From an uncultured Actinomycetes bacterium (GTDB lineage: Bacteria > Actinomycetota > Thermoleophilia > Gaiellales > Gaiellaceae), in the NCBI GenBank assembly GCA_963775395.1, contig CAVZIX010000018.1, positions 2,935 to 66,934 on the forward strand: a DNA stretch of 64,000 nucleotides, given 5' to 3'. Every line of letters begins with the position of its first letter. The stretch's first letter is position 1. Made by a program: the position numbers and the translations under genes. The notes below the pieces were generated by a model. It saw only the letters and a program-made list of their open reading frames with translations. It did not search any database and was not told where the DNA came from. Positions 11,972-44,456 of this stretch are shown here, piece after piece.

Positions 11972-13327
11972 ATGCGTGGGCCCTTGCTCTCGCCGCTTGC
12001 GCGGCCGTCGGCGTCCTCTTCGTCTGCTCGCCCGCGGGCGCGGTTCCGCCCATCGGCGGGTGGAGCGGATCGCCGCGGAGTGACCCGACGCTCGACATGT
12101 CGGCTCAGCCGTTGCCGACGCTCGTCCCGCCGCCGAACGACGCTTTCGCCGCGGCTGGTGTGGTCGGGTCGCTTCCCTTCTCGGCGACGCTTGGCACGGT
12201 CGAGGCGACGGCGGCGGTGGACGACCCGTCGTGCTTCGGCAACGACGCGTCCGTCTGGTACGCCTTCACGCCCGTGGTCTCGGCGCCGATCACCGCCGAG
12301 ACCTTCGGAAGTGACTACGACACGACGCTGTCCGCGTACACCGGCACCCAGGGTGCGCTCACGCAGATTGCCTGCAACGACGACGTCGGCGCCGGCCAGG
12401 CGGTCCCAGATCCGGTTCCCGGCGAGTGCGGGGACGACGTACTACTTCATGGTCGCCGGAGCAGGTGGCGGAAACCTCGTCTTCGCGCTCGAAGCGGCGC
12501 CGCTCGCGCTCGTGCCGCTTAGGACGACGACGGCCCACGAAGAGATTCCGGCCGCGGACGCCACACACTTTGCCTGGTCGCAGTCTTCGCGCCGGAATAT
12601 CGGTTTCGTCTCGCTCTTCATGCAGTCTGGAGGGACGCGCGTCCGCGTGAACCGAGCGAACACGCACGGCTGGTCCGGCGGATTCGAGGGCGATGTGTTC
12701 GTCTATCAAGAGGTCCGTGGGCGACAGTCGAACCTTCAGTTCTATGACGTCCCGACCGGCGTCCGCTCTTCGCCACCTCTGGGCGTTAACACGCTCGTCT
12801 GGGAATGGCGCCCGACGCTATCTGGTGACCAGTTGCTTTTCGGGCGGTTGTCCAATAGCCAGAGGATCGACTGGGTGTTTCTACGCGATCTCACGACGGG
12901 CGGCATCCGGCTCCTCGACAGGATTCGTTGGCGCAACGGGCTCCTGTGGCCCGGACAGGTCAGTGGAAACTACGCCGTCTGGTACCGGTGCACGGTGAGC
13001 GATCGGCGCTGCAACGTTCAGATGCATGACATCGCCGCTGCGACGACTGCGAAGATCCCGAATCCCGGTCGCCAGCAGTACGCTCCCTCCGTGACGAGCG
13101 ACGGGACGGTGTACTTCATTCGGAGTGGCCGCGGATGTGGCAACTCGGTTCAGCTTGTCCGTCGTCCGCTCGGCGGTCCGAGCAAGGTGATCGCCGCAGT
13201 CGGCGCCGGCCGCGACGTCCAGGCGACCTTCGCGCTCGAGAACGGCGACGGGACGACGACCGTCTACTTCGACCGCGTCCGCTGCGCCACGCGCGCCTGG
13301 GACGTGTTTAGGGTGGTCGATCCCTAG
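11972..13327 (+). pseudogene. Secreted protein (N-terminal pre-peptidase-like beta-sandwich domain plus C-terminal propeller-like region), reading frame disrupted
   Basis: The signal peptide and domain sequence (HAWALALAACAAVGVLFVCSPAGAVPP...SVWYAFTP...DTTLSAYTG...IACNDDVGAGQA) are in the frame of ORF 10924..12522. The domain continues (SQIRFPASAGTTYYFMVAGAGGGN... to 13327) in the +1 frame of ORF 11915..13327. The switch is at about 12398-12404. The SD-preceded ATG at 11972 is in the second frame. Confidence 0.6.
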
Positions 13328-13364
13328 ACCTCTTGACCTTCCTCTGACTACAATCCTGCCCGCC

Positions 13365-14432
13365 GTGGTCCGCCGGGCAGCGATCGTCCATGTTGTGGCG
13401 CTCGTGGCGGCGCTCGCCGTCGCTTCGGCGGCGCACGCCCAGACGACCGTTCGCGTTCATTTCCTCCGGGGCGAGCAGACGGTCGCGGTGGAACGGCCCG
13501 GTGCCGTGCCGGCCGAGGCAGTCGAGGCGCTCCTCGCAGGCCCCTCGCCGGCTGAGCAGCGCAGCCGGATCGTCACCGAGCTGCCCGAGGGCCTGACGCT
13601 CCTCGGGCTCGAGGCGGCCGACGGCGTTGTCACCGTCGACTTCGGGAGCTCGTTCGACGACGGCGATGCCGCCGCGGTGTCCGCGCGCGTCGCGCAGGTC
13701 GTCCTCACGCTGACGGGCCTGCCGGGCGTCCACGAGGCCCGCGTCCTTGTCGAGGGAGCGGAGCTCGCCGTCCGCACCCGCGCCGACGTCCTCGCGCCGC
13801 CGCCGCCGACGAGGAGGGCGGCCGCGCCGAGCGCTGCGCCGACGCTGTCGAGGATCGGGGGATCGATGACGGTGCTCCAGCTTCAGCGGAGGCTCGTGAA
13901 GCTGGGCTACCTGCCGCAGGGCGCAGCGACCGATCACTTCGATCAGCGGACGCTGGCAGCCGTGATCGCCTTCCAGAAGTGGCGCGGACTGGTGCGCGAC
14001 GGCATCCCGGGGCCCGTGACCCAGGCCGCCCTCCTCACTGCGAGACGGCCGACGCCCAGGACGACCGGCCCGGGAACGCGGGTCGAGCTCCTCCTCGACC
14101 GCCAGGTCGCGCTCGTCATCCGCCGCGGCCGGGTGTTGAGGACGATCCACGTCTCCACGGGCAAGCGCGGCTACGCGACCCCCAGCGGCCGCTATGCGGT
14201 TTTCCGCAAGAGCCGGAGGTCGTGGTCGGTCCCGTACCGCGTCTGGATGCCCTGGGCGAGCTACTTCGTGCGCGGTGTCGCATTCCACCAGGCGCAGAGC
14301 GTTCCCGTGACGCCGGCGTCACACGGCTGCGTCCGCGTCACGGCCGCGGACGCGCGCTGGCTCTACGCAATGACGCCGATCGGCACGAAGGTGCGCGTCA
14401 TCGCGCGCTCGCGGCCGCCTGCGCACCGGTGA
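13365..14432 (+). CDS. L,D-transpeptidase with GerMN-like and peptidoglycan-binding domains
   Basis: A signal peptide (VALVAALAVASAAHA) is followed by a GerMN-like region, a PG_binding_1 region (LQRRLVKLGYLPQGAATDHFDQRTLAAVIAFQKWRGL) and a YkuD catalytic domain (GVAFHQAQSVPVTPASHGCVRV). Confidence 0.88.
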   Translation: MVRRAAIVHVVALVAALAVASAAHAQTTVRVHFLRGEQTVAVERPGAVPAEAVEALLAGPSPAEQRSRIVTELPEGLTLLGLEAADGVVTVDFGSSFDDGDAAAVSARVAQVVLTLTGLPGVHEARVLVEGAELAVRTRADVLAPPPPTRRAAAPSAAPTLSRIGGSMTVLQLQRRLVKLGYLPQGAATDHFDQRTLAAVIAFQKWRGLVRDGIPGPVTQAALLTARRPTPRTTGPGTRVELLLDRQVALVIRRGRVLRTIHVSTGKRGYATPSGRYAVFRKSRRSWSVPYRVWMPWASYFVRGVAFHQAQSVPVTPASHGCVRVTAADARWLYAMTPIGTKVRVIARSRPPAHR

Positions 14433-33239: not shown

Positions 33240-34208
33240 ATGGGATCGCGGCCGGTTCTGATGGCGATGGCCGGTGCGACGGGCATCGCCTTCTCAGCGA
33301 TCCTCGTCCGCCTCGCCGACGTGCCTCCGTCGACCGCGGCCTTCTACCGCTGCCTGTACGCGCTGCCGCCGCTCGCGCTTCTCGCCTGGTGGGAGCGGCG
33401 CCGCTTCGGGCCGCTGGGGAGGCGCGCCCTGTGGCTCGCGCTCGTCGCCGGCGTCTTCTTCACGGGCGACCTCGTCTTCTGGCACCACGCGATCGCCGCC
33501 GTGGGCGCGGGCCTCGCGACGGTCCTGGGGAACATCCAGGTCGTGATCGTGCCCCTCGTCGCGTGGGTCCTTCTGCGGGAGCGGCCGGGCGCGCGGACGC
33601 TGGCCTCGGTGCCGGTCGTGCTCGCCGGCGTCGTCCTCATCTCGGGCGTTGTAGGCGCGGACGCCTACGGCTCGAATCCGGGGCTGGGCGTTCTCTTCGG
33701 CGTTCTCACGGCGATCACGTACGCCGGCTTCCTGCTCGTGCTGCGCGCCGGAAGCTCCGATCTCCGGCGCCCGGCCGGCCCGCTCTACTGGGCGACGCTC
33801 TCGTCCGCGCTCGTGACGCTCCCTGTCGGCGCGGCGCTCGGCGAGCTCGAGCTCGAGCCGACCTGGCCCGAGCACGGCTGGCTTCTCGTGCTCGCGCTGA
33901 CGTCGCAGGTCGTAGGCTGGCTGCTCATCGCCGCGGCCCTGCCCCGGCTTCCGGCCGCGCTCACGTCGATCACCCTGACCCTCCAGCCCGCGCTCTCGGT
34001 CATCTTCGCCGTGATCCTCCTGGACGAGTCGCCTTCCTCCGTCCAGTTCGCGGGCGTGGCCGTGATCATCGGCGGGGTCGTGCTCGCGACCGCGGGCCGC
34101 CGTTCGCGGCCGTACACTGAGCCGGAGCTGCGGGACGTAGCGCAGCCTGGTAGCGCGCCTGCTTTGGGAGCAGGAGGCCGCCGGTTCGAATCCGGCCGTC
34201 CCGACTGA
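33240..34208 (+). CDS. EamA/DMT-superfamily transporter; the ORF has no stop until after tRNA-Pro
   Basis: MGSRPVLMAMAGATGIAFSAILVRLAD... has 10 TM segments. The last 26 codons (ELRDVAQPGSAPALGAGGRRFESGRPD) are simply the translation of the tRNA-Pro gene. Confidence 0.8.
   Translation: MGSRPVLMAMAGATGIAFSAILVRLADVPPSTAAFYRCLYALPPLALLAWWERRRFGPLGRRALWLALVAGVFFTGDLVFWHHAIAAVGAGLATVLGNIQVVIVPLVAWVLLRERPGARTLASVPVVLAGVVLISGVVGADAYGSNPGLGVLFGVLTAITYAGFLLVLRAGSSDLRRPAGPLYWATLSSALVTLPVGAALGELELEPTWPEHGWLLVLALTSQVVGWLLIAAALPRLPAALTSITLTLQPALSVIFAVILLDESPSSVQFAGVAVIIGGVVLATAGRRSRPYTEPELRDVAQPGSAPALGAGGRRFESGRPD
34131..34204 (+). tRNA. tRNA-Pro (anticodon TGG)
   Basis: Hand-folded cloverleaf: acceptor CGGGACG/CGTCCCG, D-stem GCGC/GCGC, anticodon stem CCTGC/GCAGG with loop TTTGGGA, variable loop AGGCC, T-arm GCCGG-TTCGAAT-CCGGC, discriminator A. 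CCA is not encoded. Confidence 0.95.
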
Positions 34209-34754: not shown

Positions 34755-35735
34755 ATGTCCGAGCAGGAACTCACCTTTCTCTTCACCGACATCGAGCGGT
34801 CGACCGCGCTGGTCCGGAGCCTCGGCGCCGACTACTGCGACGTCCTGGCGTCCTCGCGCGTCGACCTCCGCACGGCTGCCGCCGAGCATCGCGGGCGCGA
34901 GATCGAGTGCCGCGCCGACGAGTTCTTCGCCGTTTTCGACTCGGCGCCCGCCGCCGTCGCCGCAGCCCTCGACGCGCAGCGCGCGCTCCTGGCCGAGATC
35001 TGGCCCGACGATGCGGCCGTGCGCGTCCGCATGGGCCTGCACACGGGGAGCGCGATCGACGCCGGCGCCGGCCTGATCGGGCTCGACGTGCACCGCGCCG
35101 CTCGGATCAGTTCGGCCGGCCACGGAGGCCAGGTGCTCCTGTCCGCCCGGACAGCCGCTCTGTCCGAGGTCTCGGTACGCGATCTCGGCTCCTACGAGCT
35201 CGCCGGCCTGCCGGAGGCCGAGCGCGTCTTCCAGCTCGTCGCCGATGGGCTCCCATACGACTTCCCTCCCCTGCGGCGGGCGCGCCGCATCGACGACAGC
35301 CGCCTGCGTGTCGCGCTGGCCGACGACTCGGTGCTCGTGCGCGAAGGCATCGCCGGGCTGCTCGAGGACGCCGGGATGCACGTCGTCTCGCAGGCGGGCG
35401 ACGGCGACGAGCTACTGGAGCAGGTCGCCGCCACGCGCCCCGATGTCGCCGTGGTCGACATCCGCATGCCTCCATCGGGAAGCGACGAGGGCCTGCGCGC
35501 CGCGAAGATCATCCGCAGCCTCTACCCGGGCACGGGCGTCCTGCTGCTCTCGCAGAGCCTCGAGCACGCGTACGCGCGCGAGCTTCTGGAGACCGGCGAG
35601 CAGGGCGTTGGGTACCTCCTCAAGGACCGGATCGCGGACGTGGAGGAGTTCTCGGCGGCGCTCGTCAGGATCGCCGAGGGCGGGATCGTGCTCGACGCGC
35701 AGATCGCGATCGCCTGCGACGGCGTCCGCGCCTAG
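34755..35735 (+). CDS. Class III adenylate/guanylate cyclase domain fused to a C-terminal NarL-type receiver domain (no HTH)
   Basis: The cyclase part contains LTFLFTDIERSTAL...RADEFFAVF...GLHTGSA...GLDVHRAARISSAGHGGQVLLS. The receiver part contains RVALADDSVLVREGIAGLL...PDVAVVDIRMPP...LLLSQ...GYLLKDR. The ORF stops right after ...EGGIVLDAQ. Confidence 0.85.
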   Translation: MSEQELTFLFTDIERSTALVRSLGADYCDVLASSRVDLRTAAAEHRGREIECRADEFFAVFDSAPAAVAAALDAQRALLAEIWPDDAAVRVRMGLHTGSAIDAGAGLIGLDVHRAARISSAGHGGQVLLSARTAALSEVSVRDLGSYELAGLPEAERVFQLVADGLPYDFPPLRRARRIDDSRLRVALADDSVLVREGIAGLLEDAGMHVVSQAGDGDELLEQVAATRPDVAVVDIRMPPSGSDEGLRAAKIIRSLYPGTGVLLLSQSLEHAYARELLETGEQGVGYLLKDRIADVEEFSAALVRIAEGGIVLDAQIAIACDGVRA

Positions 35736-35943: not shown

Positions 35944-36026
35944 GCCGCGTCGTTCGTGACGGCGGTCACAGATCCTTTCCGCAGGCTCGGCCGTGCCGGT
36001 TGCGCGATCGGCACATGTGTTGCACA

Positions 36027-36767
36027 ATGCGCAACGTGCAGTCCGCCGACAAGGCGATGGCGATCCTCTCGGCCTTCGACGAGGGCCGTGAGGATCTCGG
36101 CGTGTCCGAGCTTGCTGCCGAGCTGGGGACGCACAAGAGCACCGTCTCGCGGCTGCTCGCCACGCTGGAGCGCCGGGGCCTCGTGCGCCGCGTCGGCGAT
36201 CGGTTTGCGCCCGGACCGGAGCTGGCTCGGCTCGGCGGGCTCGCCGTGCGGGGGATCACACTTGTTGAGGCGGGGCGGCCAACGCTCGAGCGGCTCGCGG
36301 AGCGAACCGGGGAGACCGTCAACCTCGCCGTTCGCGAAGGGGCGCGCGCGCTGAACGTGCTGCAGGTGGACGCCGACCACTTCGTCGGGGTCACCGACTG
36401 GACCGGCCGCGCAGCACCCCTGCATGCGACGGCCAACGGCAAGGCGCTGCTCGCGTTCGGAAGCGAGCAGCTCCCGGGCCGGCTCTCGAAGCTGACGACG
36501 CGCACGATCGTCGACCGCGGCGACCTCCGCGCGGAGCTGGGTCGCGCGCGTACGGCGGGCTTCGCCGTGGCCGTGGAGGAGCTCGAGGTTGGCCTCAACG
36601 CCGTGGCCGCGCCGGTCTTCGACGCGTCCGGCTCCTGTGTGGCCGCGGTGTCGGTCTCCGGGCCCGCCTACAGGCTTCCGGAGCCGAAGCTTCCTGCCGC
36701 GGGTGACCTGTGCGCGGCCGCTGCAGCGGAGATCTCTCGCCGGCTCGGCTACCGGAGGGCTGCCTGA
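36027..36767 (+). CDS. IclR-family transcriptional regulator (first cistron of the grd operon)
   Basis: MRNVQSADKAMAILSAFDEGREDLGVSELAAELGTHKSTVSRLLATLERRGLV is an HTH_IclR domain, followed by an IclR effector domain (...NLAVREG...PLHATANGKALLAF...). ATG at 36015 is an alternative start. Confidence 0.9.
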   Translation: MRNVQSADKAMAILSAFDEGREDLGVSELAAELGTHKSTVSRLLATLERRGLVRRVGDRFAPGPELARLGGLAVRGITLVEAGRPTLERLAERTGETVNLAVREGARALNVLQVDADHFVGVTDWTGRAAPLHATANGKALLAFGSEQLPGRLSKLTTRTIVDRGDLRAELGRARTAGFAVAVEELEVGLNAVAAPVFDASGSCVAAVSVSGPAYRLPEPKLPAAGDLCAAAAAEISRRLGYRRAA

Positions 36768-37948
36768 TGGCCTGGGAGCTCGCGACCTTTCCGGCCGAGC
36801 TGATGGGCGACCTCCCCGGGCTCGACGGTGTCAACGTTGACGTCGTGCGGGCCGGCGATCCGGTGCGCATCACCCACGTGCTCGACGCCGTCGAGCCGCG
36901 CGTGCGCCCCGACGGTCGGGCCGCGTTCCCCACGGACGGCAAGGCCGGCGAGGGCCGGACGAACCGGCTCGACGGGGTGGTCGTCGTCTCCTGCCTCGAT
37001 TTCCCGGCCGAGGAACGCCCGCTCCATGAGCAGGAGGCCGTCATCGACCTCGCGGGGCCCGGGGCCGAGCTCGCGCCGTTCGCGCAGGCGACGAACGTCG
37101 TGCTCACGTTCCGTCCGCGCGACGGTCTGGGCAACGAGGAGCTCGAGGCGTGGGCGCGCACGACGACGCTCGCAGTCGCCGAGGACCTCGCCAGGCCGAC
37201 GCTCGGCGCCGAGCCCGCCGTCGTGGAGCGTTTCGAGCGCGGCCCTGCGGACGCGAGTCTTCCGTCGGTTGCCGCGCTCGTCCAGCTCTCCGACCTCGGA
37301 CCTCTCTACTACCAATACCTCTACGGCGTCCCCGTTGGACAGGCCGGCCTGCCGCGCGCGGTCGACCCGGCCGAGCTCCTCGACGGCGTCCTGACCTGTG
37401 GCGAGTACCACTGGGCAGGGCTCCGAAACCCGACGATCCTCTTCCAGCGCAACGAGCTCGTTCGCACGCTCTACCGCGAGCACGGCCGACGGCTGCGGTT
37501 CGCCGGCGTCGTGCTGATGCGTGGGTACGAGCAGACGGCCGAGGACAAGCAGCGCGCGGCGACGGCGGCCGCTGCAGCGGCCGTCGAGCTCGGAGCGGAC
37601 GGGGCGCTCGTGACCACCGATGCCGGCGGAAACTCGCACACGGACGTGATGCTCACCGTACGGGCGTGCGAGCAGGCGGGCGTGCGGACGACCACGATCG
37701 TCGCCGAGATGGCCGACCCGGGCTCGACGAGCCCTGGGCTCACGGACTGGGTGCCCGAGGCCGACTCGATCGTGTCGGCCGGGAACGCCGAGGAGCTCGT
37801 TCCCGCGTGGACGCCGGAGAGGGTCATCGGCGGTGACACGCTTCTCGACGGGAGCGACGCGCGCGACGCGGGCCCGATCCCGACCCGCAACTACCTCGGG
37901 GCGACCAACCAGATGGGCCAGCACGCGCTGAGGGCGGTCGCCTGGTGA
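36767..37948 (+). CDS. grdE: Glycine/sarcosine/betaine reductase component B proprotein (alpha/beta subunits, GrdE-like)
   Basis: The ATG shares its A with the iclR TGA (TGATG). ...VRAGDPVRITHVLDAVEPRVRPDG... and ...LDGVLTCGEYHW...FAGVVLMRGYEQTAEDKQRAA...LGADGALVTTDAGGNSHTDVML...GVRTT are collinear with clostridial GrdE as I recall it, including the processing Cys (Cys211, 37397-37399). Confidence 0.85.
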   Translation: MAWELATFPAELMGDLPGLDGVNVDVVRAGDPVRITHVLDAVEPRVRPDGRAAFPTDGKAGEGRTNRLDGVVVVSCLDFPAEERPLHEQEAVIDLAGPGAELAPFAQATNVVLTFRPRDGLGNEELEAWARTTTLAVAEDLARPTLGAEPAVVERFERGPADASLPSVAALVQLSDLGPLYYQYLYGVPVGQAGLPRAVDPAELLDGVLTCGEYHWAGLRNPTILFQRNELVRTLYREHGRRLRFAGVVLMRGYEQTAEDKQRAATAAAAAAVELGADGALVTTDAGGNSHTDVMLTVRACEQAGVRTTTIVAEMADPGSTSPGLTDWVPEADSIVSAGNAEELVPAWTPERVIGGDTLLDGSDARDAGPIPTRNYLGATNQMGQHALRAVAW

Positions 37949-39222
37949 GAGCGGTCCACTATCTCAACCAGTTCTTCGCCGGCCTGGGTGGAGAAGAGGC
38001 GGCGGAGACTCCGCCGACGCGCCTGGATGGGGCGGTGGGGCCCGGCCGAGGGCTGGCCGCTGCACTCGAGGGGATCGAGATCGTCGCGACGCTCGCCTGT
38101 GGCGACGACTACTTCGGCGAGCACGAGGACGAGGCCCTCGAGACGCTGCTCGGCCTCCTCGAGGCGGAGCGGCCGGACGTGCTCATCGCCGGCCCGGCCT
38201 TCGGCTCGGGCCGCTACGGCTATGCCTGTGCGCGTTTTTCGCGCATGGCGGCCGAACGGCTCGACATCCCCGCGCTCGCCGCGATGCACGAGGAAAATCC
38301 GGGTGTTGGGGCGACCGACGGCAAGGCGCTCGTCGTCCCCACTGCGGTCAACGTCGCCGGCATGCGGGACGCGCTTCCGCGCATGGCCTCGCTCGCGGAG
38401 GCACTCGCTTCGGGCCGCGAGCTCGGCCCGCCCGACGAGGAGGGGTATCTGCCGCGCGGTTTCCGGCGGAACCGGCTCGACGAGAAGCCCGGCGCCGAGC
38501 GGGCGGTCGAGCTCCTGCTCGCGAAGCTCGCCGGCGAGACCCGCAGCGAGGTGGCATCGGGCTTCGACCGCGTCGAGCCGCCGGCGCCCGTCGAGGACCT
38601 CTCGCAAGCGCTCGTCGCGCTCGTCACCGAGGCGGGGTGCGTGCCGCAGGGAAATCCGGACCGGCTCCCGACGATCCGCGCACAGGGCTGGCTTCGCTAC
38701 TCGCTGGCGGATGAGATGAGCCTCTTGTCCGGCCGGTACGAGTCCGTCCACGGCGGCTTCGACGTCACACTCGCGAACGAGGACCCCAACCGTCTCGTCC
38801 CGCTCGACACGGCCCGGGCCCTCGAGGCCGAGGGCCGGCTTGGCCGGGTCCACGACGCCTTCTACACGACCACCGGCAACGGGACTCCGGTCGCGGCGTC
38901 CACGCAGTTCGGTCGCGAGATCGCTGCGGAGCTCACGGAGGCAGGGGTGCACGCCGTGCTCCTGTCCGGGACCTGAGGGACCGGGACGCGCTGCGGGTCA
39001 GTGCTGGCGAAGGAGATCGAGCGGGCGGGGATTCCGACGGTATTCGTGACCTCGCTTCCGACGATCGCGACGATGATCGGCGCCAACCGCATCGTTCGCG
39101 GGCCCGCGATCACGCATCCGTTCGGGCTCGACGAGGCGGAGCGGCGCAGGATCGTCGAGCGGGCGCTCGAGATGCTCGAGACCGAGGTCGAGCCGGCGAC
39201 CGTGTGGGAGCTGGAGGGGTGA
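37945..39222 (+). CDS. grdB: Glycine/sarcosine/betaine reductase selenoprotein B (GrdB family), Sec encoded by in-frame TGA at 38974
   Basis: The GTG overlaps the grdE stop (GTGA). It begins MRAVHYLNQFFAGLGGEE... and reaches ...AVLLSGT-TGA-GTGTRCGSVLAKEIERAGIPTVFVTSLPTIATMIGANRIVRGPAITHPFG...WELEG*. The frame is open from 38977 to 39222, and ORF-track entries 37945..38976 and 39001..39222 are in the same frame. Confidence 0.88.
38974..38976 (+). other. UGA recoded as selenocysteine (GrdB residue 344)
   Basis: This is the position of the conserved Sec in the T-U-G-T-x-T-R-C-G context of selenoprotein B. The downstream frame is open and homologous. Confidence 0.8.
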
Positions 39223-39229
39223 GCCGCGG

Positions 39230-40564
39230 ATGAGCGCCGGGGCCGCGATCCACGCCTGCTCCATGGTCCTCGCGCACGCGCCGGACCTCGTCAGGCACGG
39301 CTCGAAGCCGACGAGGGAGCTGGCGGCCGACTCCGACGGGCTGCTGGCCTCGCTCTCGGGTGCCTTGCGCAGCTACGACGACGCGCTCGCCTATCCACCC
39401 AACCAGGCGCTGATCGGGAATCTCCGCCCAGAGGCGCTCTGGGAGCTCGAGCGGCCATGGTGGCGGCAGCCGGTCGACCCGCGCAGCGAGGGGCCGTTCG
39501 GCGTGATCGTCGACCAGGCCGAGCTCTACCGGCGCATGCAGGAGGCGGATCACTTCGGGCTCTTCAAGCTCGACGGGACCGCTGCGAGAAACGGCGGTCT
39601 GACGATCAGCGAGGACGGCCGCGATATCGGCTCGATGGCTGGAGCGCACGACGTCGACGAGAGCCTCTCGGCGGCGGTGCTGCTCGAGAACCTCGCCTGC
39701 AAGGCCACGGGCGCGCTCGCGCTCGAGCACGTGCTCCGCATCTCGACGCTCCCTCCGGAAGACGTCCAGTACGTGATCGGGAGCGGGGAGGAGGCCGTCG
39801 GCGACCGCTACCAGCGGGGCGGCGGCAACCTCGCCAAGGCGATCGCCGAGCAGGCAAGGTGCGTGAATGCCTCCGGCAGCGACGTGAAGGCGTTCTGCTG
39901 CGGCCCCGTGCACGCACTCGTCGTTGCCGGAGCTCTGGTCGCGGCCGGCGTCTATCCGCATGTGCTCGTCGTGGCGGGTGGGTCACTGGCCAAGCTGGGG
40001 ATGAAGTTCGCGGGCGCCCTTCGTCATGGCGTGCCGGTGCTCGAGGACGTTCTCGCGGGCTTCGCCGTCGTTGTCGGCCCATCCGGCGACGGAGCGCCTG
40101 AGATCCGCCTCGACGCCGTCGGGCGGCACCGCGTCGGCTCGGGCTCGGCCCAGCAGGCCGTGCTCGAAGATCTGGTCGTCGAGCCGCTCGAGCGGCTCGG
40201 TCGGCGCATCCTCGACGTCGACCGCTACGCGACCGAGCTCCACGATCCGGAGATCACGGAGCCGGCAGGGGCGGGCAACGTCCCGAGCCGCAACTACAAG
40301 CTCATCGGCGCCCTCGCCGTGCGCCGTGGCGAGCTGGCCCGCGAGGAGCTGGACGGGTTCGAGCGCGCTCACGGCCTGCCGGGCTTCTCTCCGACGCAGG
40401 GGCACGTCGCCTCGGCGGTCCCGTGGCTCCCGCACGGCCTCGAGGCGCTGCGGGCGGGCGAGATCGGCTCGACCATGCTGCTCGCGAAGGGCTCGCTCTT
40501 CCTCGGGCGCATGACCGAGCTGGCCGACGGCCTATCGATCCTCGTGGAACCGGGAAAGGAGTAG
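39230..40564 (+). CDS. grdC: Glycine reductase complex component C, beta subunit (thiolase-fold, GrdC-like)
   Basis: ATG lies 12 nt after GGAGG. ...HACSMVLAHAPDLVRHGSKP...YPPNQALIGNLRPE...LENLACKATGALALEHVL...GGGNLAKAIAEQA...SDVKAFCCGPVHALVVAGALVAAG...VVAGGSLAKLGMKF...GNVPSRNYKLIGALAV...GFSPTQGHV...LLAKGSLFLGRMT. This matches GrdC as I remember it and fits the context. Confidence 0.78.
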   Translation: MSAGAAIHACSMVLAHAPDLVRHGSKPTRELAADSDGLLASLSGALRSYDDALAYPPNQALIGNLRPEALWELERPWWRQPVDPRSEGPFGVIVDQAELYRRMQEADHFGLFKLDGTAARNGGLTISEDGRDIGSMAGAHDVDESLSAAVLLENLACKATGALALEHVLRISTLPPEDVQYVIGSGEEAVGDRYQRGGGNLAKAIAEQARCVNASGSDVKAFCCGPVHALVVAGALVAAGVYPHVLVVAGGSLAKLGMKFAGALRHGVPVLEDVLAGFAVVVGPSGDGAPEIRLDAVGRHRVGSGSAQQAVLEDLVVEPLERLGRRILDVDRYATELHDPEITEPAGAGNVPSRNYKLIGALAVRRGELAREELDGFERAHGLPGFSPTQGHVASAVPWLPHGLEALRAGEIGSTMLLAKGSLFLGRMTELADGLSILVEPGKE

Positions 40565-40566
40565 AC

Positions 40567-40896
40567 ATGCCGGTCGACGCGACTGTCGACACCTACCACG
40601 ACCTGACGAGCGACGGCAGCGTCCTCGTGGACTTCTGGGGCCCGCGCTGCCAGCCTTGCCTCGCGATGATGCCCACGATCGCGCAGCTCGAGGAGGAGGC
40701 CGGCGGGGCAGTTCGGGTCGTCAAGGTCAACTCGTCGGAGAACCGCGACATCTGCCGCGAGCTGCGCGTCTTCGGCCTGCCGACGTACGTTCTCATGCAG
40801 AACGGAGAAGAGCTGGAGCGGCTCTCGGGCGAGGTGTCCAAGGGCGACATCGAGCGCGCGTTCGCGACGCTCGCGAAGGGAGGTGAGGCTGCATGA
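40567..40896 (+). CDS. trxA: Thioredoxin-fold protein with C-Q-P-C active site (grd-associated)
   Basis: ATG at 40567 follows [50 protein letters not shown]...VVKVNSSEN...[14 protein letters not shown] has thioredoxin topology, but with CQPC instead of CGPC. Confidence 0.88.
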
Positions 40897-41357
40897 AGCT
40901 CGACGGCAAGAAGGTGATCGCGCTCGGCGAGCGGGACGGCGTGCCCGGCCCCGCGATTGCCGCGTGCGTCTCCTCGGCGGGAGCCGAGGTCGTCTTCGTC
41001 GAGACGGAGTGTTTCGTCTGAACGGCTGCCGGGGCCATGGACCCGGAGAACCAGGACCGCATCATGGCCCTGGTCGACGAGCACGGCGCGGGCGACCTCG
41101 TGGTCGTCCTCGGCGCAGCCGACCTCGAGTCGCTCGAGGTCGCAGCCGAGACGGTCACGGTGGGAGACCCGGCGTACGTCGGTCCATTGGCAGGAGTCCA
41201 GTTGGGGCTCCCCGTCGTTCACATCCTCGAAGAGGGCGTCAAGGAGCAGGTCGATGCCGGCGTCTACGACGAGCAGGTCGGGCTGCTCGAGATGACCCTG
41301 GACGTCGACCAGGTGCGCGAGGCGGCGAGGAAGTTCCCGGGCCGCGACGGCGGCTAG
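40893..41357 (+). CDS. grdA: Glycine/sarcosine/betaine reductase complex selenoprotein A, Sec encoded by in-frame TGA at 41019
   Basis: The ATG overlaps the trx stop (ATGA). [59 protein letters not shown]...[30 protein letters not shown]...[11 protein letters not shown]. This is the GrdA signature ECFV-U-TAAGAMD. ORF 41037..41357 is the in-frame tail. Confidence 0.92.
41019..41021 (+). other. UGA recoded as selenocysteine (GrdA residue 43)
   Basis: It sits exactly at the U of the invariant CFVUTAAGAMD motif and is in frame with the ATG at 40893 (126 nt). Confidence 0.88.
41029..41046 (+). other. Candidate SECIS-like hairpin downstream of the grdA UGA
   Basis: CCGGG (41029-41033) pairs with CCCGG (41042-41046) around the loop GCCAUGGA, starting 8 nt after the UGA. 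This was folded by eye only. Confidence 0.3.
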
Positions 41358-41532: not shown

Positions 41533-42291
41533 TCAGCGCGGCTCGGGGTCCGGCGCGGACTCCTCTTCGGCCATGAACTTGACGAACACGACCGCGAAGG
41601 CGGCGAAGAACACGATCGCCTCACTCACCGCCATCGCGATGCCGGCGATCTGCTGGTCCTCGAGCGGCGTCAGGTCGCGCAGGCGCGGTGCAGCGACGTA
41701 GAAGTCGTAGAGCGGCTCGGTGAGGAGAGCGAGCAGGAGGCCGAGCGGGCTCGCGAAGACGAAGGCGATGAAGATGTAGGCGGCCTTCGCGCCCGACGAG
41801 AGGGCGCGGGGCGCGCTGTGCACCACGGGCCACCAGAGAAAGAAGCCGGTCACGAGATATGTGAGGTGCTCCAGGTGCAGGAGCGCGTGGTGCTCGAGGG
41901 CGGTGTCGTAGGCCGCGGGGATGTGCCACACGACATAGCCGCCGAGCCACAGCGGCAGCGCGATCGCCGGCGCGCTCAGGAGGCGAATCACGCGCACGCG
42001 CGCGAGAGACTCGGCCAGGGACGGCGGGAGGCTGGCGACCAGAAGAAGCGGGATCCACTCGGCGAGCGCGACGTTCTGGACGAGGTGAGCCGTGAGGAGG
42101 TAGTGGAGCGCAAGCGTCCCGAGCGGCGTGACGGACACTGCGAGGAACAGGACGACCGCCGCGACGAAGCATGCCGCCCGGACCCTTGACGGTCGATGCC
42201 TGCGGGCCGCGACCAGATAGGCGGTCGTCAGGACGGCGACGGCGGCGAGCTCGACCCACGCCGTTTGCCAGCTCGACGGCGAGGGCGCCAC
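41533..42291 (-). CDS. Cytochrome c oxidase assembly factor CtaG-like (Caa3_CtaG family) membrane protein
   Basis: 252 aa with a GTG start and about 7 TM segments. ...HLVQNVALAEWIPLLLV...GGYVVWHIPAAYDTALEHHALLHLEHLTYLVTGFFLWWPV... is typical of the family. Confidence 0.75.
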   Translation of the reverse strand: MAPSPSSWQTAWVELAAVAVLTTAYLVAARRHRPSRVRAACFVAAVVLFLAVSVTPLGTLALHYLLTAHLVQNVALAEWIPLLLVASLPPSLAESLARVRVIRLLSAPAIALPLWLGGYVVWHIPAAYDTALEHHALLHLEHLTYLVTGFFLWWPVVHSAPRALSSGAKAAYIFIAFVFASPLGLLLALLTEPLYDFYVAAPRLRDLTPLEDQQIAGIAMAVSEAIVFFAAFAVVFVKFMAEEESAPDPEPR

Positions 42292-42834: not shown

Positions 42835-42905
<71 letters not shown>

Positions 42906-43401
42906 CCTGGATCGTTCGCCGTTCAGTTCTCAGGATGCCGCCGAGGGACCTCTGTCGGCGATGACCGCGTCGCAGCCACCACACCCAAGCCTCTGTGAGC
43001 TGACGTTGATTCGTATCAGCGGCGACTATGAGGATCCGGCCGAGGACCCATTGTTTCGCGCTTCTGCGAGGAGCTCTGCCCCTTCGTTGATCGTCCGAAC
43101 AGCCTCTGCCAGTCCTTGTCTGGAATCTCCTGAGCGTGTCGATGCCGCGCGGGATGGCCGCGTGGAGCTTCCCACCGGCAGGGCGCGCGCAGCTGAAGTC
43201 GGCGCCGTCAGCCCGGCCGGCGCAAGCACCATGGTCGCTTCGATCTTCAAGAGCGGTATGCCGAGCAAGCGGGCACGGATACAGGCCTCGACGAGGACTC
43301 CGTCCGAGAGGCGTTTTCCTGGATCGGGAACGGCTGTTAGCCCGGCCGGAACTCTTGTCTGCGACGATCTAGGCATCGCTCAGGCCCGGCATCTGTGAGG
43401 G

Positions 43402-43616: not shown

Positions 43617-44456
43617 TCAGCGTTTGCGGGAGGCCCTCGTGATTGCCTGGACGAGTTCGCCCTTGGTCATGCTCGACCGTCCTTGGATACCCATGCTGGC
43701 TGCAAGCTCGACCAGTTCGGGCTTGTTGTAGGACTTCAAGCCGCCGTTCGCGGTATCCCGTTTGAGCTCGCGTGCGGCATGCTTTGCAGCTGCCGCTAGG
43801 TGGTCGCGGAGTTCTTCGGTCTCCCCGATCCGCGCCTCCGCGTCGCTCGCTTGCTGATTCGCTTCGGCGGCGAGCTGCTTCGCCTGGCGATTGGCCTCCT
43901 CGGCTGCGGCGCGAGCGGCCTGAGCCGCCTCGTCCGCCAGCCGCTTGGCTTCGGCGAGTGCCTCAGTAGCATCCTCGACGAGCTCTTCGGCGCGTTGTTG
44001 CGCCTCCTCGGCGTCAAGGTGCGCTTCCTCGATCTCCTCGTCAATTTCGTCCTGGACTTCCTTCCGATCCTCTGCTGCATCCGCTTCGGCAGCCTGGCGC
44101 TCTCGCCGCACGAACTCGTTGGCGGCCTTCTGAGCCTCGGCCACACGCTCCTTCACGTCCCGACTCGTCTCGCGCTCCACCTCCGTCATTCGTGCGCGAC
44201 CACGCTCGCTGACCTGCCGAGCGTAGGCAGCGCGAGCCTTGGACTCCCGCGCCGCCTCGAGGGCGCGCTCTTCGGCTTCCCGAGCACGCTCGGCGGCCTC
44301 CTGTGCACGCCTCGCCCGCATCTCGACTGAGTCCCCGCCGAAGGGCGCAGCGTCCGCCACGGCCGCAGCGGGCTTCACGGCCTGGGCAAGCAGCCAGGCA
44401 GAGTTGGACGGCATGTCACGCAGACCAGTTCGCATTCGCTCCAACAACAACATCAA
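43617..44456 (-). CDS. Ala/Glu-rich coiled-coil protein with C-terminal Rho_N/SAP-like domain
   Basis: About 200 aa of AEEA/QAAR heptad-like repeats end in LKSYNKPELVELAASMGIQGRSSMTKGELVQAI (Rho termination factor N-terminal-like). The start is uncertain (several in-frame Met codons). Confidence 0.7.
   Translation of the reverse strand: MMLLLERMRTGLRDMPSNSAWLLAQAVKPAAAVADAAPFGGDSVEMRARRAQEAAERAREAEERALEAARESKARAAYARQVSERGRARMTEVERETSRDVKERVAEAQKAANEFVRRERQAAEADAAEDRKEVQDEIDEEIEEAHLDAEEAQQRAEELVEDATEALAEAKRLADEAAQAARAAAEEANRQAKQLAAEANQQASDAEARIGETEELRDHLAAAAKHAARELKRDTANGGLKSYNKPELVELAASMGIQGRSSMTKGELVQAITRASRKR

Follow-up and report, generated by a model that had tools for sequence, protein, structure and literature searches.

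A central question raised by this locus is what a glycine reductase-like operon does in the high-GC soil actinobacterium (Gaiellaceae) that carries it, as neither grdD nor trxB accompanies the other genes of the pathway. In the analysis of the surrounding 64-kb stretch of DNA, hereafter the window, the reading that best accommodates the data, to which we give a probability of about 60%, is that of an IclR-controlled and self-contained two-selenoprotein reductase, belonging to a distinct and widespread GrdD-independent lineage of the glycine/sarcosine/betaine reductase superfamily and presumably acting, through a non-pyruvoyl mechanism, on a substrate of the type X-CH2-COO-.

Organization and conservation of the operon

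The operon is compact and lies on the + strand, with six genes in the order iclR, grdE-like, grdB-like, grdC, trx and grdA, the third and the last encoding selenoproteins. Specifically, the iclR stop and the grdE-like start overlap as TGATG (36765-36769) and the grdE-like stop overlaps the GTG start of grdB as GTGA (37945-37948); the grdB stop (39220-39222) is separated by a 7-nt gap from the grdC ATG at 39230, and the grdC TAG (40562-40564) by a 2-nt gap from the trx ATG at 40567, while the trx stop and the grdA start share ATGA (40893-40896). Every one of these junctions had been proposed by the sequence-only reading and is found at exactly those positions; moreover, the identities it had given to the six genes and to the next gene downstream all agree with Pfam or NCBIfam matches. 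The latter is a convergent ctaG-like gene (41533-42291, - strand; PF09678 Caa3_CtaG, 146 bits) for a caa3 oxidase assembly factor, whose synteny is kept in the closest relatives; the 3′ boundary of the operon is set by this gene, which stands outside the system.

The first cistron encodes an IclR-family regulator (36027-36767, + strand; PF09339 and PF01614), which more probably starts at ATG 36027, giving 246 amino acids as in its relatives, than at the alternative ATG 36015. Its best NCBIfam match is BhcR, with 172 bits against a cut-off of 350, and no gene of the neighborhood points to a substrate. No tRNA-Sec gene was found in the window. The operon recurs in 13 Gaiellaceae/Thermoleophilia genomes, and within the lineage its six proteins are 53-96% identical; the recurrence in relatives with 60-96% protein identity, which includes the overlapping iclR/grdE junction and both in-frame TGA codons, indicates an arrangement beyond chance. 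In particular, iclR directly precedes the grdE-like gene in 13 distinct loci. The translationally coupled regulator in first position, which had appeared unusual for grd loci, is in other words a conserved feature of the lineage and no peculiarity of one genome.

GrdC and the missing GrdD and TrxB

That neither grdD nor trxB occurs in the window, as the sequence-only reading had stated, is borne out by dedicated searches. No GrdD was found in the 64 kb by tblastn with canonical GrdD and four fusion-derived GrdD domains (the two of these that were scanned both belong to NF040747), nor by a GrdD HMM, and both positive controls, loci L088 and L089, were detected; likewise, tblastn with canonical TrxB and the CxxCD motif detected no TrxB in the window. 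The two genes are also not adjacent to the operon, which has at least 22 kb of window on each side. Moreover, grdD is absent from all 80 loci whose GrdC is closest to that of the operon (about 1.23 Mb of flanks searched, 51 of the loci being flanked by 5 kb or more on each side) and from seven further loci obtained by protein look-up (L001-L007). The 80 loci come from at least eight phyla, including Actinomycetota, Chloroflexota, Desulfobacterota, Acidobacteriota and Bacillota. The GrdD-less architecture spans many phyla, cultured Bacillaceae among them, and is not confined to one actinobacterium; for example, an island of Cytobacillus oceanisediminis (L085) consists of TetR, BCCT, grdI, grdH, trxB, grdC, trx, grdA and selB genes, without grdD, and its GrdH reaches 767 bits on the GrdH model.

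The grdC gene (39230-40564, + strand) encodes a short form, of 444 amino acids, of the component C beta subunit (NF040746, 542 bits, cut-off 450), with a PF19364 domain and a weak PF08545 match. Its Cys223 (39896-39898) is 100% conserved in GrdD-less and GrdD-partnered clades and aligns, in a profile comparison against the PDB, with the cysteine of the KAS III AACAG motif (1mzj, E 2e-7), presumably the catalytic nucleophile of those enzymes; Cys223 is taken to be a nucleophile of the same thiolase/KAS III type. GrdC sequences separate cleanly into two clades, one GrdD-less and one GrdD-partnered: in a simple, midpoint-rooted NJ tree, built from nearest neighbors of the operon GrdC on one side and from GrdD-anchored loci on the other, all 88 GrdD-less sequences group together, with no GrdD-linked member among them. 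The GrdD-less clade is characterized by R193, Y194, K220, K259 and H338; the first four are at invariant positions, which are occupied by M, N, R and N in GrdD-partnered GrdC.

These data bear on whether the operon is part of an ordinary glycine reductase split across the genome, with grdD and trxB elsewhere and glycine converted to acetyl phosphate, or a reduced variant, the two options that had been left side by side. The former would be in keeping with the scattering of grd genes in some organisms, such as Treponema denticola, and the absence of grdD refers to linked DNA, that is the window and the flanks. Moreover, GrdA and GrdC both score above the equivalog cut-offs that NCBIfam sets for the canonical complex, which counts against our preferred reading, and a bona fide glycine-type B component of Desulforhabdus (L042; TIGR01917, 631 against 602 bits; SGNC site) also comes without linked grdD, so that an unlinked or absent grdD is compatible with a glycine substrate. 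On the other hand, grdD is within reach in 0 of the 88 loci of the GrdC clade, whereas elsewhere adjacency or fusion of grdC and grdD is the rule: grdC lies directly upstream of grdD in 69 of 80 grdD-containing loci, and GrdC-GrdD fusions occur naturally. In addition, among the matches with a source name in two GrdD searches, none is from Actinomycetota. Together with the features of component B described below, this makes the split system unlikely and favors the reduced variant.

Component B, thioredoxin and GrdA

The partner subunit of component B is a GrdE-like protein of 393 amino acids (36767-37948, + strand; PF09338, 248 bits), which, in an alignment of 73 homologues, shows Gly212-Glu213-Tyr214 (37400-37408) where the canonical pyruvoyl-forming site has Gly-Asn-Cys. 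Tyr214 is invariant in a clade of 35 loci, which has no conserved cysteine; in contrast, all 34 GrdE from GrdD-linked loci have the Asn-Cys site, a difference that argues against an ordinary glycine reductase. The GrdG (sarcosine) model, the sole specific model on hand for the substrate type of this subunit, gives 164 bits against a cut-off of 780.

The second subunit is a GrdB-family selenoprotein of 425 amino acids (37945-39222, + strand; PF07355; TIGR01918, 438 bits). Its Sec344 is encoded by an in-frame TGA (38974-38976), kept in 80 of 82 homologous loci, within the active-site motif UGTGTRC, i.e., UxxGxxC as opposed to the canonical UxxCxxC. A SECIS-like hairpin (38988-39004, + strand; stem 38988-38993/38999-39004, loop CGGGU) follows 11 nt after the UGA; the RNAalifold consensus of 15 distinct sequences has six pairs, one of which covaries (UA in eight sequences, CG in seven), while another alternates between GC and GU. 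The protein scores below the cut-offs of the glycine, sarcosine and betaine models alike (TIGR01917, 406 against 602 bits; GrdF, 434 against 800; GrdH, 373 against 775). It matches neither the published GrdB nor the published GrdF motif, and yet its TTGNGTPV retains the glycine-type TxGNxTxV element, a point in favor of a split glycine reductase (PMC9751293). In the phylogeny it is placed in an Actinomycetota-only clade, and it belongs to a 53-leaf clade that contains no members with the glycine or sarcosine motif; a comparison with the known GrdB and GrdE clades, proposed earlier as a way to the substrate, consequently leaves both subunits outside the characterized groups. As the Asn-Cys site is missing from the GrdE-like protein and GrdB carries UxxGxxC, "glycine reductase" is probably the wrong substrate label for the operon.

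A narrower form of the preferred reading is that of a betaine-type reductase, acting on glycine betaine or an onium relative (dimethylglycine, dimethylsulfonioacetate), whose substrate would be bound by the aromatic residue that stands where the pyruvoyl group is otherwise formed. Like Tyr214, an aromatic residue replaces the cleavage cysteine in the GrdI of L085 (Gly-Ser-Phe at the site); the GrdC of the betaine-reductase islands of Bacillaceae belongs to the same GrdD-less clade, and their thioredoxins have a similar CxPC site (CQPC in L085, CVPC in L049). However, besides the low GrdH score, GrdB is 45% identical to Bacillaceae GrdH, no closer than to glycine and sarcosine types, and has GNGT in place of the GTGT of methylamine-type enzymes; furthermore, neither in the window nor in the relatives does a BCCT-type homologue of the transporter in L085 cluster beside the operon. 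On balance, this more specific assignment is a tentative option and rather doubtful.

The dedicated thioredoxin (40567-40896, + strand; 109 amino acids; PF00085) has the active site Cys-Gln-Pro-Cys, and its closest NCBIfam model is clostridial TrxA, with 77 bits, below the cut-off; the variants PRCQPC, PQCQPC, PSCQPC, PDCQPC and PECQPC together account for 34 of 48 linked thioredoxins. Selenoprotein A is encoded by grdA (40893-41357, + strand; 154 amino acids; NF040748, 214 bits, cut-off 130), with Sec43 specified by an in-frame TGA (41019-41021) within ECFVUTAAGAMD and kept in 87 of 88 loci.

The lack of two components regarded as essential, in a lineage whose one cultured relative known to us, Gaiella occulta, is an aerobe, might suggest a grd cluster that was acquired horizontally and is now a decaying remnant without function. 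However, the tightly coupled reading frames are all intact, dozens of species keep the operon (53-96% identity), the Sec codons are retained, the hairpin shows a compensatory change, and the GC content of the operon (about 0.72) is that of its surroundings, all of which makes a remnant highly improbable.

Proposed mechanism and comparison with known systems

In the GrdD-independent reductase that we favor, component B would be formed by the GrdB-like subunit, with Sec344, and an uncleaved GrdE-like subunit with Tyr214 at the pyruvoyl-forming position. It would bind X-CH2-COO- and break the C-X bond by reduction, no Schiff base being involved, so that X would probably be something other than glycine's primary amine. 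The carboxymethyl group would stay on the selenium of component B and then move to Sec43 of GrdA; GrdC, with its thiolase fold, would take over the two carbons and bind them to Cys223 as an acetyl thioester, with formation of a Se-S bond in GrdA, which may be re-reduced by the operon-encoded CQPC thioredoxin with electrons from a thioredoxin reductase encoded elsewhere. Without a PlsX-like GrdD, the acetyl group would have to exit GrdC in a different way: the likeliest seems to be transfer to CoA, in which the loading step of KAS III and thiolases would run backward, the alternatives being phosphorolysis or hydrolysis by GrdC itself. We know of no biochemical precedent for acetyl release by GrdC alone, since thioester and acetyl-phosphate formation was reportedly assigned by Kohlstock and colleagues, in 2001, to Cys359 of GrdD and not to GrdC. 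Substrate and product probably both differ from the textbook ones, given that the acetyl-phosphate-forming subunit is missing from the linked DNA and the pyruvoyl-forming site from the GrdE-like protein.

The biochemistry of clostridial glycine reductase is known from Eubacterium acidaminophilum and Clostridium sticklandii, and its genes are arranged, for example in Crassaminicella thermophila (L088), as GrdX-TrxB-TrxA-GrdE-GrdA-GrdB-GrdC-GrdD. The operon has in common with that system a CxxU GrdA, a GrdB-family selenoprotein with a PF09338 partner, a thiolase-fold GrdC with the conserved cysteine and a dedicated thioredoxin, components that imply the same logic from carboxymethyl-selenoether to acetyl-thioester. 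It differs in the absence of GrdD, GrdX and TrxB, in the two altered sites of component B, in its GrdC, which falls into a clade of its own, carries invariant residues specific to that clade and has lost about 40 residues through a deletion, and in a translationally coupled IclR in a high-GC soil actinobacterium. With the betaine reductase GrdH/GrdI of L085 it shares a partner subunit that has an aromatic residue in place of the cleavage cysteine, the GrdD-less GrdC clade, the CQPC thioredoxin and the unlinked grdD, but its GrdB is divergent (45% identity, 373/775 bits, GNGT instead of GTGT) and no BCCT transporter, trxB or selB is near. In D-proline reductase, the selenoprotein and proprotein partner, PrdB and PrdA, are remotely homologous to GrdB and GrdE; there, however, proteins A and C are not needed and no acetyl product arises, and the operon proteins score 80 against 300 bits for PrdB and 24 against 700 for PrdA. 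Finally, although the GrdE-like subunit reaches 71 of 675 bits on the FarE model, the operon resembles the FarE-type fluoroacetate reductases of Synergistota in pairing a B component of the Grd superfamily with what would be a non-amine X-CH2-COO- substrate.

Layout, conservation and selenocysteine codons of the operon

The forward strand carries six genes in tandem: iclR (36027-36767, with an alternative ATG at 36015; PF09339 and PF01614), a grdE-like gene (36767-37948; PF09338, 248 bits), a grdB-like gene (37945-39222; PF07355), grdC (39230-40564), trx (40567-40896; PF00085) and grdA (40893-41357). The gene identities proposed in the sequence-only reading were borne out by profile searches, each product being matched by its family profile. 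In particular, GrdC passes the model for the component C beta subunit (NF040746, 542 bits versus a cut-off of 450) and GrdA, whose CxxU motif reads ECFVU, that for selenoprotein A (NF040748, 214 bits versus 130). The tight junctions described in that reading are exact to the base, namely TGATG at 36765-36769, GTGA at 37945-37948, gaps of 7 and 2 nt, and ATGA at 40893-40896, and the convergent gene that it had called ctaG-like (41533-42291) is indeed a Caa3_CtaG homologue. The GC content of the operon (about 0.72) is the same as that of its surroundings. A scan for promoters and terminators gave no signal above shuffle expectation, and an exact-sequence look-up of this GrdC matched no record.

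The order iclR-grdE-grdB-grdC-trx-grdA is found again, often with the convergent ctaG behind it, in 13 distinct relatives (L003, fetched by protein look-up, and L008-L011, L013, L016, L018-L021, L026 and L038, genomic loci with the closest GrdC), with protein identities of 53-96%; iclR is absent from some close relatives (L002, L012, L014, L015 and L017). More than 1000 relatives of the GrdE-like protein were found; the ones listed are 79-94% identical and chiefly metagenomic, and those among them that carry NCBI names are Gaiellaceae MAGs. Similarly, the closest GrdC loci among GTDB species genomes belong to MAGs of Gaiellaceae, Gaiellales and Thermoleophilia. These matches assign the window to a Gaiellaceae-like member of the Thermoleophilia. 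The operon is real and conserved, and it is probably functional.

With regard to regulation, the model nearest to the IclR protein is BhcR, with a score under its cut-off, and small carboxylates are common signals of IclR regulators. IclR-like genes with 28-30% identity also occur in or beside clusters that lack grdD in Syntrophobacteraceae and other Desulfobacterota (L059 at about 6249, L061 at about 9174 and L042 at about 15128), and control by IclR-type regulators may recur across these systems. Directly upstream of the operon, a gene at 34755-35735 (forward strand), syntenic in L001-L003, codes for a fusion of an adenylate/guanylate cyclase domain with a response-regulator receiver. Further out lie a tRNA-Pro(TGG) gene (34131-34205, about 2 kb upstream), a tRNA-Gly(TCC) gene (42835-42907, about 1.5 kb downstream) and, on the reverse strand at 43620-44456, a gene for a highly charged, Ala/Glu/Arg-rich protein of 279 aa with a C-terminal Rho_N domain (PF07498).

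Two in-frame TGA codons mark the putative selenoproteins, one in grdB (38974-38976, residue 344) and one in grdA (41019-41021, residue 43, within ECFVUTAAGAMD). The former aligns with the selenocysteine position of all relatives in a protein that passes the model of the selenoprotein B superfamily (TIGR01918, which covers glycine, betaine, sarcosine and D-proline reductases; 438 bits versus 65), and the TGA at the catalytic position is kept in 80 of 82 GrdB and 87 of 88 GrdA homologues from the loci fetched. Beginning 11 nt past the grdB UGA, a SECIS-like hairpin of 6 bp on the forward strand (38988-38993 pairing with 38999-39004, loop CGGGU) is preserved across 15 distinct sequences, with one compensatory pair (U-A in eight, C-G in seven) and another that alternates between G-C and G-U; the residues encoded over it vary from Ser-Val to Ala-Thr. 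By these comparative features the hairpin fits what is expected of a bacterial SECIS. Comparative folding alone brought it out, small as it is; a single-sequence fold past the grdB UGA was not better than shuffles (z = +1.6). For grdA, no conserved SECIS consensus was resolved among the relatives; a 13-bp stem after its UGA (41027-41073; z = -2.7 in a 101-nt fold) was discarded as a candidate, not being conserved in relatives. Between 34 and 44 kb, Rfam matches at E<=1 comprised the two tRNAs only and no SECIS family, and no tRNA-Sec or sel gene was identified within the 64-kb window.

The substrate-specific component B

In canonical systems the GrdE proprotein reportedly cleaves itself at an Asn-Cys bond, thereby generating the glycine-binding pyruvoyl group. 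The corresponding SGNC site is found in all 34 GrdE proteins from GrdD-linked loci. It is missing from the GrdE-like protein studied here, which has Gly212-Glu213-Tyr214 at the aligned position. A cysteine three positions upstream, Cys211, is not conserved; close relatives have Ser, Ala or Gly instead. Tyr214 is invariant in a clade of 35 loci that has no conserved Cys anywhere.

The GrdB-like protein, too, is non-canonical. Its selenocysteine motif reads UGTGTRC instead of the canonical UGTCTRC, a variant shared by 42 of 79 aligned GrdB sequences, mostly of Actinomycetota; UxxCxxC has been cited in a review as the functional motif (PMC13188914). Moreover, its scores fall short of the cut-offs of all three substrate-specific models, that is glycine GrdB (TIGR01917, 406 bits versus 602), sarcosine GrdF (434 versus 800) and betaine GrdH (373 versus 775), and the GrdE-like protein likewise stays below the cut-off of sarcosine GrdG (164 versus 780). 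The GrdB-like protein is 49% identical to the glycine-type protein closest to it, and 45% identical to the closest protein of the sarcosine type and likewise of the betaine type. In a tree it is placed in an Actinomycetota-only clade of 35, within a 53-leaf clade that has no members with a glycine or sarcosine motif. The glycine motif itself is found in 4 of 78 GrdB proteins of GrdD-less loci versus 36 of 43 from GrdD-linked loci. Judged from these sequence features, the half of the system that determines the substrate is probably not that of a glycine reductase. Searches of PDB sequences with GrdE, GrdB and GrdA gave no solved relatives.

Recent surveys count Grd systems by their GrdB and GrdE motifs (PMC9751293). 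The GrdB-like protein matches neither the GrdB nor the GrdF motif of that work, and would fail its survey motifs.

GrdC and its partner GrdD

Among 80 metagenomic loci picked for containing grdD, grdC lies directly upstream of it in 69, the others being mostly on short contigs. A GrdC query against 1.84 billion cluster representatives also matched proteins of 840-860 aa, four of which (P0129, P0130, P0135 and P0137) are natural GrdC-GrdD fusions. The two that were scanned, P0129 and P0130, pass both NF040746 and NF040747, the latter by their C-terminal halves, and the C-terminal halves of all four align with one another and share a GMGCTG motif. These fusions lend independent support to the view that the two subunits of the canonical class function as a single unit.

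The sequence-only reading had found no grdD in the window, and this result stands: neither tblastn nor HMM searches with the four fusion-derived GrdD domains, the HMM built from them and the canonical GrdD of Crassaminicella thermophila gave a match there, the positive controls being detected. The same searches found no GrdD in 87 related loci, that is the seven fetched by protein look-up and the 80 with the closest GrdC (51 of the latter with at least 5 kb on either side; about 1.23 Mb of flank searched overall), and recovered it in both canonical control loci, L088 (C. thermophila; grdX-trxB-trxA-grdE-grdA-grdB-grdC-grdD) and L089. The 80 loci come from Actinomycetota (Gaiellales, other Thermoleophilia, uncultured Actinomycetes, Acidimicrobiia), Chloroflexota/Dehalococcoidia, Syntrophobacteraceae and other Desulfobacterota, Acidobacteriota, Rokubacteria and Methylomirabilis, and include three cultured Bacillaceae. 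Clustering of the flanking ORFs of 85 GrdD-less loci brought out no extra gene conserved throughout the clade that might substitute for GrdD.

A possibility is that grdD is encoded, unlinked, elsewhere in these genomes. Among the best 120 matches listed (profile; high-GC fusion-derived domain), those with names comprised no actinobacterial or Chloroflexota GrdD, which is weak evidence, and were mostly from Bacillota, with some from Synergistota and Methylocystaceae. TrxB is also absent from the window, as had been noticed, in the presence of the CQPC thioredoxin, and a housekeeping TrxB is expected elsewhere in the genome. The earlier, hedged view of a split or reduced grd system is supported and can be sharpened, in that none of the related loci searched has a linked grdD and the GrdE-like and GrdB-like proteins are non-canonical.

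GrdC itself mirrors this division. In a neighbour-joining tree of 173 sequences, all 88 GrdD-less GrdC proteins group together in a single clade, free of GrdD-linked and fused sequences, and 68 of 70 GrdD-linked sequences fall in another; the two sets were sampled differently, as the nearest neighbours of the window GrdC and as loci chosen for grdD, respectively. Five residues (window numbering) distinguish the GrdD-less clade from those predominating in the GrdD-linked set: Arg193 and Tyr194 (GDRYQRGGG versus GDMNQRGGG), Lys220 (versus Arg), Lys259 (versus Asn) and His338 (versus Gln). The first four are invariant in the 88 sequences and His338 is present in 93%. The window GrdC belongs to this clade by its position, by all five residues and by the lack of a linked grdD. 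GDRYQRGGG...KLGMKF versus GDMNQRGGG...KLGMNG provides a simple sequence test that separates the two classes. Cys223 is conserved in 100% of both clades and aligns (profile versus PDB, 1mzj, E 2e-7) with the Cys of the conserved AACAG motif of KAS III, which we take to be the catalytic Cys.

Two observations concern unusual arrangements. For L003, a relative with 91-96% identity to the window, gene calling yields a single GrdC-thioredoxin of 555 aa (12464-14131), either a true fusion or an artefact of assembly or calling, the window genes being separated by TAG and 2 nt. In a low-GC MAG (L005/L006/L007; GCA_018819015.1, JAHJQY010000001.1), a minimal set without trx and grdD consists of grdC-grdA and a divergent grdB-grdE with the canonical SGNC; its GrdA motif is unusual (CFSUGTGE), and the set borders on TraG/T4SS-like genes and on a gene for an aminoacyl-tRNA synthetase of class I.

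Proposed chemistry and comparison with known systems

GrdA and GrdC are modules common to all Grd-type enzymes, and for this reason a carboxymethyl-selenoether on GrdA and an acetyl thioester would still be expected as intermediates, which would limit the substrate to X-CH2-COO-. Lacking a pyruvoyl group, component B would have no Schiff-base chemistry available, so that a primary amine, as in glycine, is improbable as X. By analogy with betaine reductase, X would more plausibly be an onium group or another good leaving group, and both Tyr214 and the Phe of the betaine-type partner would be compatible with an onium-type X. With the PlsX-like GrdD absent, the acetyl group would have to leave GrdC by another route. 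Transfer to CoA is favoured, because the acyl-accepting Cys of the thiolase/KAS III type is kept and several invariant basic or polar residues have been gained in the clade; phosphorolysis or hydrolysis by GrdC, or an unlinked enzyme acting in trans, are possible alternatives. GrdA would be recycled by the CQPC thioredoxin, with reducing power from a TrxB encoded elsewhere.

None of the operon neighbours names the substrate. In a subclade of uncultured Actinomycetes and Thermoleophilia (L004, L019-L039, L051, L075, L080 and others), the flanks of the E-B-C-trx-A cluster repeatedly carry genes of four kinds, namely for class III aminotransferases (16 loci), permeases of the PotB/C-like type (15), solute-binding proteins (13) and aldehyde dehydrogenases (10), which hints at conversion of an amine to an X-CH2-COOH compound ahead of reduction. 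The operon in the window and its clade have no such aminotransferase, PotBCD-like ABC or aldehyde dehydrogenase genes beside them.

The most far-reaching interpretation, with a probability of about one in three, is that the GrdD-less GrdC clade is a separate Grd-type class, in which GrdC alone frees the C2 unit, for example as acetyl-CoA and not acetyl phosphate, and which in abundant soil Gaiellales/Thermoleophilia is paired with a non-pyruvoyl component B for a substrate outside the known Grd enzymes. If true, this would bring selenium-dependent reductive C-X cleavage into lineages regarded as aerobic. Two selenoproteins are maintained here in a soil lineage that, to our knowledge, is noted neither for selenium use nor for strict anaerobiosis. 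In metabolic reconstructions, Grd genes are routinely annotated as converting glycine to acetyl phosphate, as part of either the reductive glycine pathway or Stickland fermentation. Should a large clade, which takes in common soil Actinomycetota, Chloroflexota and Acidobacteriota, have no phosphorylating subunit and mostly no pyruvoyl site, many such annotations would be wrong on substrate, product and ATP yield. In addition, the clade represents a natural experiment on the function of GrdC, whose role, as far as we know, has never been defined biochemically.

No description of GrdD-less Grd systems, or of Grd in Gaiellales, Thermoleophilia or Actinobacteria, was found in the literature searched. 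The most telling single locus for the GrdD-less class is L085 of Cytobacillus oceanisediminis (1-21425, NZ_QGTW01000016.1), a betaine-reductase-type island of TetR, BCCT transporter, grdI, grdH (767 bits with the GrdH model), trxB, grdC, trx, grdA and selB, from which grdD is absent despite the otherwise full gene set. Such islands without grdD occur in three aerobic or facultative, cultured Bacillaceae (L085, L049 and L060). The Desulforhabdus locus L042, in turn, combines a glycine-type B (TIGR01917, 631 bits versus 602; SGNC site) with a GrdD-less GrdC, and Desulfovibrio desulfuricans G11 has been reported with both C subunits (PMC7547702).

Judged by its components, the system would act like a glycine or betaine reductase, with differences from each known type. 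Compared with sarcosine reductase, it fails both the GrdF and the GrdG cut-offs and has TTGNGT where that type has TTGTGT. Compared with betaine reductase, for which the Bacillaceae locus serves as proxy, the GrdB-like protein is far under the GrdH cut-off that the L085 protein approaches (373 and 767, respectively, versus 775); a partner without the cleavage Cys is common to both, with Tyr214 here where the L085 GrdI has Phe. Finally, the operon departs from canonical glycine reductase in three defining features, the glycine-specific GrdB, the pyruvoyl-forming GrdE and GrdD, whereas it shares with it a CxxU GrdA and a GrdC that pass their model cut-offs.
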